A DNA stretch of 59,704 bases from Deltaproteobacteria bacterium. Its GTDB lineage: Bacteria; Myxococcota_A; UBA9160; UBA6930. The notes under the pieces were generated by a model. The model saw only the letters and a program-made list of their open reading frames with translations, ran no database searches and was not told where the DNA came from. The translations under genes and the position numbers were made by a program. The stretch spans positions 1 to 59,704 of the forward strand of contig JAJDAR010000038.1 in NCBI GenBank assembly GCA_029261775.1, in the 5' to 3' direction. How positions within the stretch are numbered: position 1 is the stretch's first letter; every line of letters begins with the position of its first letter. Positions 22,300 to 23,508 of this stretch are shown here, piece by piece.

Positions 22300-23508
22300 A
22301 TGATCTCCCGATGGACGAAGCTGGCCTGCACGGCGGCCGCGGCCCTGGCCCTGATGCTGGGTCTCGCGCCCTCCGAGCGCGCGCAAGCGGTCGAGCCGAC
22401 GCCGGTCACCATCGACGTGCTGTTCCTCTACACGCCCGCCGTCACGGCCCGCTACGGCAGTGGCGTGGACGCGCGCATCGACCAGATCGTGGCGGTCGCG
22501 AACGATGCCTTCGCCCGTTCCGAGGGCGGCGCGCGCCTCCGGGCCGTCCACAGCGAGGAGGTGAGCTACGGGACCGGACCTGACTCCATGACGGCGCTCG
22601 ACGACCTCACCTACAACCGCGGCGTGTTCGCGGGGATCGAGACGCTTCGCGACCAGGTCGGTGCCGACATGGCCGTGCTGCTCCGACCCTACGTCGGCGA
22701 CGGCGTCTGCGGCATTGCGTGGGTGGGTGGGTACCACTCGGGCGGCAACCTGAGCGGGTCCAGACGCTATGCCTACAGCCACGTGTCCGCCGACTGCTCG
22801 GACTACGTGCTCGGCCACGAGCTCGGGCACAACCTCGGGCTGACCCACTCGCGACGCCAGGACGGGCAGGGCGGTACCTACCCCTGGTCCCTGGGCCACG
22901 GTGTGAACGGCACCTTCGTCACGATGATGGCCTACGGCTCTTCGTTCTCCGGCGCTCCCAAGGCCCACGTCTTTTCGACGCCGAACCTCCTCTGCGCCGG
23001 CGTGCCCTGCGGCATCGCCAAGAGCGATGCCACGAACGGCGCGGATGCCGGCGACAGCCTGAGGGCGGTGGTGTCCCAGGTGGCGTCCTATCGGCCCACG
23101 GTCGTCCCCGAGAGCGGCGCGCCGAGCCTCGACATCCTCGGCCCCAACCGGAACTCGCAGCTGGCTCCGGCCGGCACCTATCCGATCTCCTGGAGCCAGA
23201 GCGGCCTGGCGAGCGTGGATCTGTCCTACCGAGTCGAAGGAGATTCGGTCTTCCAACCCATCGCCCAGGACGTGACCGGCACCCGGTACACCTGGACGAT
23301 TCCGGCGAGCCTGGCAGGCCTCTCGATCCGCGTCCTGGCGGACGGCTTCGATACGAGCGGCACGGTCCTGGTGTCCGACCTCAGTGAGGTCGCCGTCGTC
23401 GATCAGGCGACTGCCCCGCCGACCGTCGACAAGAAGAAGAAGAAGAAGAAAAAGAAGAAAAAGAAGAAGAAGAAGCGCAAGAAGAAGAAGAAGAAGCGCA
23501 AGAAGTAG
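22300..23508 (+). CDS. Secreted zinc metalloprotease, reprolysin-like (M12B), with poly-Lys C-terminal tail
   Basis: Signal peptide (ACTAAAALALMLGLAPSERAQA), zincin motif HELGHNLGLTH, a ~120-aa C-terminal beta-rich domain, then K15-R-K6-R-K2 and the stop. Confidence 0.88.
   Translation: MISRWTKLACTAAAALALMLGLAPSERAQAVEPTPVTIDVLFLYTPAVTARYGSGVDARIDQIVAVANDAFARSEGGARLRAVHSEEVSYGTGPDSMTALDDLTYNRGVFAGIETLRDQVGADMAVLLRPYVGDGVCGIAWVGGYHSGGNLSGSRRYAYSHVSADCSDYVLGHELGHNLGLTHSRRQDGQGGTYPWSLGHGVNGTFVTMMAYGSSFSGAPKAHVFSTPNLLCAGVPCGIAKSDATNGADAGDSLRAVVSQVASYRPTVVPESGAPSLDILGPNRNSQLAPAGTYPISWSQSGLASVDLSYRVEGDSVFQPIAQDVTGTRYTWTIPASLAGLSIRVLADGFDTSGTVLVSDLSEVAVVDQATAPPTVDKKKKKKKKKKKKKKKRKKKKKKRKK
23431..23505 (+). 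repeat. (AAG)n trinucleotide microsatellite, 25 codons (21 AAG, 2 AAA, 2 CGC)
   Basis: Read directly. A 75-nt stretch that is all purine on the + strand except the four C's of two CGC codons, inside the protease CDS and ending at the TAG stop. Confidence 0.98.

Follow-up and report, generated by a model that had tools for sequence, protein, structure and literature searches.

What does a run of 25 basic residues do at the C-terminus of a predicted secreted metalloprotease? The question is raised by a 59,704-nt contig (JAJDAR010000038.1, assembly GCA_029261775.1; hereafter the window, meaning this whole stretch) from a Deltaproteobacteria bacterium of the GTDB lineage Myxococcota_A, in which a 402-residue protein ends in ...APPTVD-K15-R-K6-R-K2. 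An original prediction, made from the DNA letters, had described the tail and proposed that it could be an anchor to polyanions, a sorting or retention tag, a length-variable tract or an H-DNA-forming element. Comparison with other assemblies and orthologs indicates that the tail is real and maintained and is no artifact. It also indicates that the charge is selected at the protein level, because orthologs keep basic tails, two of them in mixed Lys/Arg codons. We give about an even chance to a role of the tail as a nonspecific electrostatic tether to polyanions, which may be lipopolysaccharide (LPS), anionic lipid, exopolysaccharide or other acidic polysaccharide, or extracellular DNA (eDNA).

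The tail and its stop codon lie exactly where the original prediction had placed them, with the content it had given (Table 1). The 25 codons (21 AAG, 2 AAA, and 2 CGC) are in frame with the open reading frame (ORF) of the protease and are ordered AAGx6 AAA AAGx2 AAA AAGx5 CGC AAGx6 CGC AAGx2, then TAG. The 75-nt tract is the compositional extreme of the window, as had been claimed. Its GC fraction is 0.36, whereas the window averages 0.709 (sd 0.051) and the second-lowest value is 0.49; its purine fraction is 0.947, and the second-highest is 0.73. Elsewhere in the window, runs of at least three Lys codons are absent from the + strand and occur once, with 3 codons, on the - strand. Lys accounts for only 1.5% of codons, and Arg for 10%, in those window ORFs that are likely to be coding, and chance therefore does not explain 23 Lys in 25 codons. 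In the tract, Tandem Repeats Finder identified one array of period 3 (score 97) and another of period 21 (score 103), the latter being (AAG)6CGC, and together these point to slippage plus unit duplication. The preference for AAG over AAA had been read as a sign of maintenance; this argument was dropped, since the 21:2 ratio in the tail equals the codon bias of the window genes (246:15, 94% AAG).

That the tail is translated and maintained, as originally proposed, is supported instead by its presence across a clade and in independent assemblies. Look-up of the neighboring FKBP protein recovered contig L018 (Logan assembly SRR15505514), and look-up of the neighboring short-chain dehydrogenase/reductase (SDR) gave the same contig. 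It is 99.85% identical to window positions 22013-26754 and again carries 25 basic codons, which argues against the assembly artifact that had been considered as a refutation. An exact-protein look-up of the window protease itself returned no record. When the C-termini of homologs were tabulated, the orthologs, at 63-84% identity, were found to carry tails of 26-35 K/R residues, namely K10RK17RRR in L002 and K13RK9NRR in L009, whose proteins are 84% and 74% identical to the window protein outside the tail, and KRKHKKKRKRKRRHRKKRRKKKKRKKRRRGRR in P0001 and KKQKKRLRKKEQRKKRRLRKKNKKKKKKKRRR in P0002, both 78% identical outside the tail. The P0001 protein is present in identical form in two independent assemblies, and the P0001 and P0002 tails are mixed K/R sequences of 33-35 residues. 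Tails in a sister clade with ~50-60% identity are 8-16 residues long (e.g., KTKKKRKKRRRRRRRR and KKKGKRRKRRRR), and in two of its members the tail is nearly missing. Across homologs the tail varies from 1 to 35 residues, and between species of the long-tail clade from 25 to 35. Among titled records, the closest are Myxococcota or 'Deltaproteobacteria' metagenome-assembled genomes (MAGs) from marine samples.

The codons of these tails bear on how they are kept. Those of P0001 and P0002 are written in six different Lys/Arg codons (AAG, CGC, CGA, CGG, AGG, and AGA) and therefore are not maintained by slippage. In the near-pure tracts, of which there are three, AAG has given rise to 12 single-step variants; 11 of these specify Lys or Arg, and GAG is not among the 12 (P = 2e-6 with equal likelihood for every single step, P = 0.012 if only transitions are allowed). 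A neighbor-joining tree places the near-pure tracts in the basal L009 and in the window plus L002, with the mixed tails branching in between, so that a long basic tail must predate the clade. Throughout the clade, whose proteins diverge by ~25%, the basic tail keeps at least 25 residues. The junction preceding the tail is semi-conserved and contains Pro; it reads PP-x-V-D-K in long-tail proteins and (R)LPK in short-tail ones. The Asp just before the tail (V-D-K...) is found in the window, L002, and L009 and is absent in P0001 and P0002.

The same tract changes quickly. Between the window and L018, two 3-nt indels fall within its 75 nt and 1 SNP in the remaining ~4.7 kb; relative to the window, L018 loses an AAA codon in the first block and gains an AAG in the second, giving K14RK7RK2 in place of K15RK6RK2. 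This one pair of short-read assemblies, in which an assembly error in the repeat is possible, supports a candidate in-frame indel hotspot. ON/OFF phase variation was considered and rejected, given the 3-nt unit and the reading frame kept, with the stop directly after the tail, in 6 of 6 sequenced alleles and orthologs; the change is a drift in length and register. The idea of a length-variable tract thus stands in part. The two indels at 99.85% identity and the spread of 25-35 residues between species agree with it, but switching is absent, and the net length is equal in the window and L018, the sole same-species pair. Phase-variable genes of Neisseria and Haemophilus are simple-sequence contingency loci. 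The tract resembles these as an intragenic microsatellite that changes by slippage between near-identical strains and differs in that its 3-nt unit keeps frame and expression.

The protein that bears the tail is, by its Pfam matches, a reprolysin-like (M12B-type) metzincin, in agreement with the original prediction. Reprolysin_4 (69.1 bits, cut-off 22), Reprolysin_5 (54.8, cut-off 27), and Reprolysin_3 (52.7, cut-off 22.4) all exceed their gathering scores, and the HExxHxxGxxH motif is intact, with H173, E174, H177, G180, and H183 invariant in the homolog alignment (A1). The predicted Sec signal peptide, likewise part of the original prediction, was recognized by inspection from a basic n-region, a hydrophobic core, and an AQA|VEP site; the A|VEPTP junction and the position of the hydrophobic segment are kept in all close homologs in the alignment. 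The NCBIfam model Mep72 (NF052434, equivalog) matched with E=5.9e-66 and 223 bits over model positions 1-244 of 573. A full-length equivalog match, for which the cut-off is 645 bits, was not reached, the C-terminal part of the window protein consisting of an FN3-like domain and the tail. The catalytic domain has its closest solved structure in 6o38, the complex of Acinetobacter CpaA with its chaperone CpaB, and sequence and fold comparison both gave CpaA as the only solved relative. Peptidyl-Asp endopeptidases are known among relatives of this group of proteases, and one distant match, P0028, bears that name.

An AlphaFold2 (AF2) model was built from a 9-sequence alignment and reproduced the catalytic domain poorly (mean predicted local distance difference test score, pLDDT, 57.5); nothing beyond the β-sandwich and the similarity to CpaA was taken from it. 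The confident 'helix' that AF2 assigned to the tail was disregarded as a typical low-complexity artifact. The FN3-like β-sandwich adjoins the tail directly. It is homologous to a domain repeated 30-50x in giant proteins of 3,000-6,900 residues (P0042-P0061 and others), which end in type IX secretion system (T9SS)-type C-terminal domains (...GVYFYR...TKKMxLLK). A word-based search with the β-sandwich alone for other enzymes combining domain and tail gave 14 candidates, none of them significant. A basic loop inside the β-sandwich (A1 columns ~338-348; e.g., VEKKKRRRRWAKSAW) was observed in P0003, P0004, P0005, P0008, P0052, and P0077, which belong to the short-tail sister clade, and is absent from the long-tail clade.

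Table 1 Features of the protease locus in the window. Coordinates are window positions.
Feature	Position	Strand	Basis or content
BamI/CpaB-like partner gene, 237 aa, putative periplasmic inhibitor/secretion chaperone	21577..22290	+	48% identity to L001 protein; NCBIfam
Metzincin gene, 402 aa: signal peptide, reprolysin-like catalytic domain, FN3-like β-sandwich, polybasic tail	22300..23508	+	ORF, Pfam, NCBIfam Mep72, CpaA 6o38
Predicted Sec signal peptide, residues 1-30, cleavage AQA/VEP	22300..22389	+	Inspection
Zinc-binding motif HELGHNLGLTH, residues 173-183	22816..22848	+	Alignment A1
FN3/Ig-like β-sandwich, ~residues 285-372	23152..23415	+	AF2 pLDDT 75-87, all-β; Foldseek to FN3 domains
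Polybasic tail K15-R-K6-R-K2	23431..23505	+	(AAG)n microsatellite, interruptions 2 AAA + 2 CGC codons
TAG stop codon	23506..23508	+	Read from sequence

Charge, rather than any particular sequence, is the property shared by these C-termini. The C-terminal region is net positive in 16 of 16 proteins (+4 to +29). In the long-tail clade, the linker and β-sandwich together carry a net charge of -4 to -7 (-7 in the window protein, 0 in P0002) and the tail +23 to +33, and in the short-tail clade the domain carries +3 to +9 with a basic loop (e.g., VEKKKRRRRW) and the tail +9 to +16, which suggests that loop charge and tail length compensate each other. Basic tails are found elsewhere in the family in P0055 (...RIKKAKKKK), P0169, and P0041, where they appear to have arisen independently in other branches. 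The tail of P0169 (398 aa) is a histone-H1/AlgP-like KxPKxK repeat of ~35 residues following a long disordered Pro/Ser/Ala linker, and P0041 (601 aa) has a small domain between K/R stretches.

Other members of the family end differently. The gammaproteobacterial homologs (P0011-P0023; L004-L007; Pseudomonadales MAGs and Idiomarina) are predicted lipoproteins of ~295 residues without a C-terminal module, in which the Cys is followed by a Gly/Ser-rich linker, an alternative anchoring in the same protease family. Further relatives carry carbohydrate-binding modules (CBMs), A/K-rich regions that resemble coiled coils, or termini of the T9SS type. In this family of proteases, the C-terminus is thus a slot for localization modules, which in this clade is filled by a polycation. 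As in polybasic anchors of the K-Ras4B/MARCKS type and the eDNA-binding tail of ScpH, the element is a Lys/Arg cluster in which charge rather than sequence is conserved. Among the four original hypotheses, the polyanion anchor therefore fits best, given a C-terminal module that is always net positive, an acidic β-sandwich with the long tail, and other localization modules (lipobox, CBMs) in related clades.

The original prediction had missed that the protease belongs to a Mep72/CpaA-type system with a BamI/CpaB-like partner. The partner gene ends 9 nt upstream of the protease gene on the same strand, and its protein is 48% identical to the product of L001 9312-10001, which is annotated as PF27177 BamI_lipocalin in a complete Myxococcota genome. 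Its NCBIfam matches to BamI (E=2.9e-6) and CpaB (E=1.5e-4) are both below the model cut-offs, so the protein is only a distant relative of BamI/CpaB. A local Pfam scan of the partner proteins gave no match, even for those with a precomputed PF27177 annotation, and the local library seems to lack that model; an exact look-up of the window partner protein returned no record. A BamI/CpaB-like gene precedes the protease in 7 of 7 related loci (L001, L002, L015, L017, L020, L021, and L022). In Pseudomonas aeruginosa, BamI binds Mep72 and neutralizes its toxicity; Mep72 itself leaves the cell by type II secretion, loses the carbohydrate-binding modules at its C-terminus, and gains stability from the polyanion alginate (PMC4334185). 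In Acinetobacter, CpaB is a membrane-anchored chaperone needed for type II secretion of CpaA (PMC4713064). By analogy with these relatives, the protease and its adjacent partner would form a pair of the Mep72/BamI or CpaA/CpaB kind, with type II secretion and inhibition or chaperoning as its probable features.

The window partner has a net charge of -12, an N-terminal hydrophobic anchor, and a conserved acidic C-terminus. Strong acidity is common to all the partner proteins, whose net charges run from -8 to -25 and whose linkers and C-termini are acidic, as observed in the window (Table 1), L002 9286-9987, L015 1481-2155, L017 250-972, L001 9312-10004, and L020 8442-9122, and most share the C-terminus DDL[DE]QLIDPDxTDE[RL][IV]PPE (in the window especially 22200-22287). 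This C-terminus might occupy the protease active site in the manner of inhibitor tails. No covariation was found between partner acidity and tail length.

Gene structure, homology, charge conservation, tract instability, and the partner gene are directly supported by the data, and from these and from characterized relatives we infer an export route, a binding target, and persistence of the tail on the mature enzyme. The protease would be exported by Sec, held inactive or folded in the periplasm by the acidic partner transcribed just upstream, and probably released through the type II system. The flexible +25 tail, carried on the FN3-like spacer, would then act as a sequence-independent electrostatic tether that keeps the protease on envelope or matrix polyanions (LPS, anionic phospholipid, acidic exopolysaccharide, eDNA) rather than lost into seawater, substituting for the lipoprotein anchor, CBMs, or other C-terminal modules of related clades. 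Slippage of 3-nt AAG units and duplication of the (AAG)6CGC unit would produce fast drift in length and register, from which selection would remove charge-losing changes. Prokaryotic Lys-rich low-complexity regions are typically nonspecific nucleic-acid binders (PMC6821194). Lys, unlike Arg, crosses SecYEG readily since it can be deprotonated (PMC9110029), so that export of a Lys-dominated tail is compatible with this route; AAG slippage and the easier SecYEG passage of Lys may together account for the dominance of Lys over Arg, despite 7x more Arg in the genome.

Several points weigh against the tether. The close homologs P0006 and P0007 are almost tail-less, and the long tail is thus not essential to the family. 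A basic tail occurs in 0 of 15 lipobox proteins, against 9 of 140, and on such small numbers a mutual exclusion between lipobox and tail lacks statistical significance. Mep72 loses its C-terminal domains during export (PMC4334185), and the tail may likewise not stay on the active enzyme. A +25 segment could also hinder Sec or type II export, the signal peptide is assigned by inspection and the secretion route from relatives, and the organism is known from metagenome assemblies only.

Other readings of the tail have to be weighed against these data. It is quite unlikely, in our judgment, that the protein is a natural 'artilysin' of a myxobacterial predatory or competitive secretome, whose polycation would bind and disorganize the LPS of competing or prey bacteria and bring the protease to their outer membrane or across it; this overlaps with the polyanion tether, the target being the sole difference. 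The lineage is Myxococcota, an immunity-like inhibitor gene is probably co-transcribed, and polylysines of ~20 residues are classical polycations for permeabilizing the outer membrane (Vaara). The tail also resembles the engineered KRKKRKKRK nonapeptide that takes endolysins across the outer membrane (PMC4161244), and full-length Mep72 is toxic in Escherichia coli without BamI (PMC4334185). However, the locus bears no sign of predation, its neighbors being housekeeping genes, these marine MAG lineages are not known predators, the high ionic strength of seawater weakens a purely electrostatic attack on LPS, and short-tailed and tail-less relatives argue for a graded retention function. Less probable in our view is a transient pro-segment that would hold the zymogen on the anionic membrane or the acidic partner until type II release and then be clipped. 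The Asp right before the tail in the window, L002, and L009 would suit such clipping, some relatives being peptidyl-Asp endopeptidases, and the partners are strongly acidic, but P0001 and P0002 lack the Asp junction, partner charge does not covary with tail length, and lasting selection for as many as 35 basic residues seems more than a transient tether would need. The processing of Mep72 in export, with removal of its C-terminal domains that is possibly autocatalytic (PMC4334185), is the precedent for this reading.

We rank lower still the possibility that a slippage-prone AAG microsatellite expanded at a permissive C-terminus and is merely tolerated, its extreme length being functionless. 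Such a neutral origin would account for the unstable tract with its two 3-nt indels against 1 SNP in 4.7 kb and its period-21 duplication, for tail lengths of 1 to 35 residues with nearly none in P0006 and P0007, and for the general tolerance of low-complexity extensions at C-termini. It accords poorly with the persistence of at least 25 residues at ~25% protein divergence in a genome whose 71% GC should wear down an AT-rich tract, with replacements that are almost exclusively Lys/Arg and never Glu, with the mixed-codon tails of P0001 and P0002 that slippage could not maintain, with the offset of the acidic β-sandwich by the tail, and with the independent recurrence of basic tails in the family. 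A dedicated sorting or retention signal read by specific machinery (outer membrane vesicle loading, a type II recognition element, or a sortase-like system not yet described) and defining a cargo class, the second of the original hypotheses, is very unlikely. The tail is indeed C-terminal, on an exported protein, conserved in the clade, and preceded by the semi-conserved Pro-containing junction. Against this, the tripartite signal of the LPXTG, PEP-CTERM, MYXO-CTERM, and GlyGly-CTERM kind is absent, the pre-tail sequence ...EVAVVDQATAPPTVD having no hydrophobic helix and the basic part being 25 residues long versus 3-6; no NCBIfam CTERM model scored above noise on the window protease; and no NCBIfam or Pfam match was obtained there to the T9SS C-terminal domain (a β-sandwich of ~80 residues at the extreme C-terminus, TIGR04183-like), T9SS-type termini occurring only in the giant repeat proteins that have the FN3-like domain. 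No candidate processing enzyme lies nearby, the extreme variability in length and sequence is unlike a recognized motif, and in the ~150 kb covered (the window plus eight related loci) no K-containing basic-tailed ORF was found other than the protease orthologs. Hardly credible is a DNA- or RNA-level element in which coding is incidental, whether a homopurine mirror repeat forming H-DNA, as had been hypothesized, or a C/U-rich antisense transcript aiding termination of the convergent FKBP gene. The tract is 94.7% purine and lies 30 nt from the convergent stop codon, and one weak terminator-like match on the - strand overlaps it, but such matches are at chance level (2 found versus 1.1 expected) and folding z-scores are ~0 on both strands. 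Moreover, the C-containing codons of P0001 and P0002 break the homopurine mirror repeat and keep the charge, and the downstream gene differs in L002 and L001, where the tail is kept. In the twin-domain model, positive supercoiling builds up between convergent genes, which disfavors H-DNA.

The polyanion tether can be set beside several known systems. With the biofilm-associated metzincin Mep72 of Pseudomonas aeruginosa and its inhibitor BamI (PMC4334185), the window pair shares a homologous catalytic domain, a Sec-type N-terminus, an upstream and probably co-transcribed BamI-like gene, and a noncatalytic C-terminal module, plausibly for matrix association. It differs in that Mep72 has two carbohydrate-binding modules and the window protein one FN3-like domain with a polybasic tail, and in that the host is a marine Myxococcota MAG for which secretion, processing, and inhibition are predicted from genes. 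CpaA/CpaB (PMC4713064; PDB 6o38) provides the closest solved catalytic structure, and the adjacent window partner has an N-terminal hydrophobic anchor and the weak CpaB match given above; however, cpaB lies downstream of cpaA whereas the window partner gene lies upstream, CpaA lacks a polybasic tail and carries four repeats that bind glycans, and identity is only ~22-24%. The closest functional analog is the secreted protease ScpH of Streptococcus sanguinis (bioRxiv 10.64898/2026.05.25.726231). Where its orthologs have a covalent anchor, ScpH has an electropositive C-terminal module with a lysine-rich tail that binds the polyanion eDNA. ScpH belongs to the unrelated S8 subtilisin-like family of a Gram-positive bacterium, and its tail acts with FIVAR domains and has no homopolymeric microsatellite run. 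Artilysins (KRKKRKKRK-endolysin fusions; PMC4161244) similarly use a short terminal K/R peptide to target an enzyme to the anionic LPS layer, but they are engineered, carry a muralytic cargo and a 9-residue tag, and are aimed at crossing a foreign outer membrane. The C-terminal Lys repeats of Streptomyces topoisomerase I and mycobacterial Ku (cited in PMC6821194) are also long Lys-rich tails from GC-rich genomes with nonspecific electrostatic binding, although these proteins are cytoplasmic and bind chromosomal DNA, whereas the window protein bears a predicted signal peptide and comes from a family of secreted proteases.

A polycationic tail as the anchor of a secreted enzyme is unusual but not unprecedented, and the locus is best described as a protease-partner system of known type in which the C-terminal module of the protease is an extreme and unusual polycation, so far confined to a small clade of uncultured marine Myxococcota. 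A bolder version, which we consider rather unlikely, would make the tail a natural slippage-tunable polycationic targeting device that replaces lipid or lectin anchors, with which a type II-secreted, inhibitor-guarded protease coats anionic surfaces (the producer's envelope or matrix, or the LPS of competing Gram-negative cells, as artilysins do by design), tail length being set at the population level by in-frame AAG slippage; the protein would then also be a natural test case for movement of a +25 to +33 segment through SecYEG and the type II system. If the tether is correct, it would represent a very simple, sequence-independent way for Gram-negative bacteria to hold secreted enzymes, beside lipidation, CBMs, sortase-type tags, and the T9SS C-terminal domain. 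A natural exported protein with 25-35 consecutive basic residues bears on charge transport by SecYEG, especially on the lysine deprotonation or 'proton ratchet' model (PMC9110029). The parallel with eDNA-bound streptococcal ScpH suggests convergent lysine tails that decorate polyanionic matrices with proteases, and in practical terms the tail offers a model, taken from nature, for enzymes tagged with polycations. Should the extreme length be no more than a tolerated microsatellite expansion, it would be a curiosity of a small uncultured marine Myxococcota clade.

Downstream of the pair, the convergent gene encodes an FKBP-type peptidyl-prolyl isomerase (stop codon 23539-23541), followed by the SDR gene and by acyl-CoA dehydrogenase and HD_4 genes. 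A search of the wider window for sortase-like or processing enzymes found none, and the genes there are housekeeping genes. Upstream of the protease operon and divergent from it lies a gene at 20120-~21388 (-) for a Ca2+-dependent phosphatidylinositol phospholipase C-like protein (PF16670, E=1.9e-117). This protein has its own signal-peptide-like segment and ends in ...GGLPRR, with two basic residues only, and its gene is a second one for an exported hydrolase beside the operon.

Additional tandem repeats were observed in the window. The 33-nt unit ATGTTGACAAAGGGGTCGGGCCTCTCAGTCAAC is perfectly duplicated at 15122-15188, in the intergenic region between a sigma-70-family gene and a diaminopimelate (DAP)-dehydrogenase-like gene, and holds a GTTGAC...GTCAAC palindrome. 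Further arrays are located at 7767-7878 (28 nt x4, 89% matches), 45857-45921 (33 nt x2, 90%), and 26725-26785 (32 nt x1.9, 100%), the last of which falls at the 3' end of HD_4, the point at which contig L018 stops.

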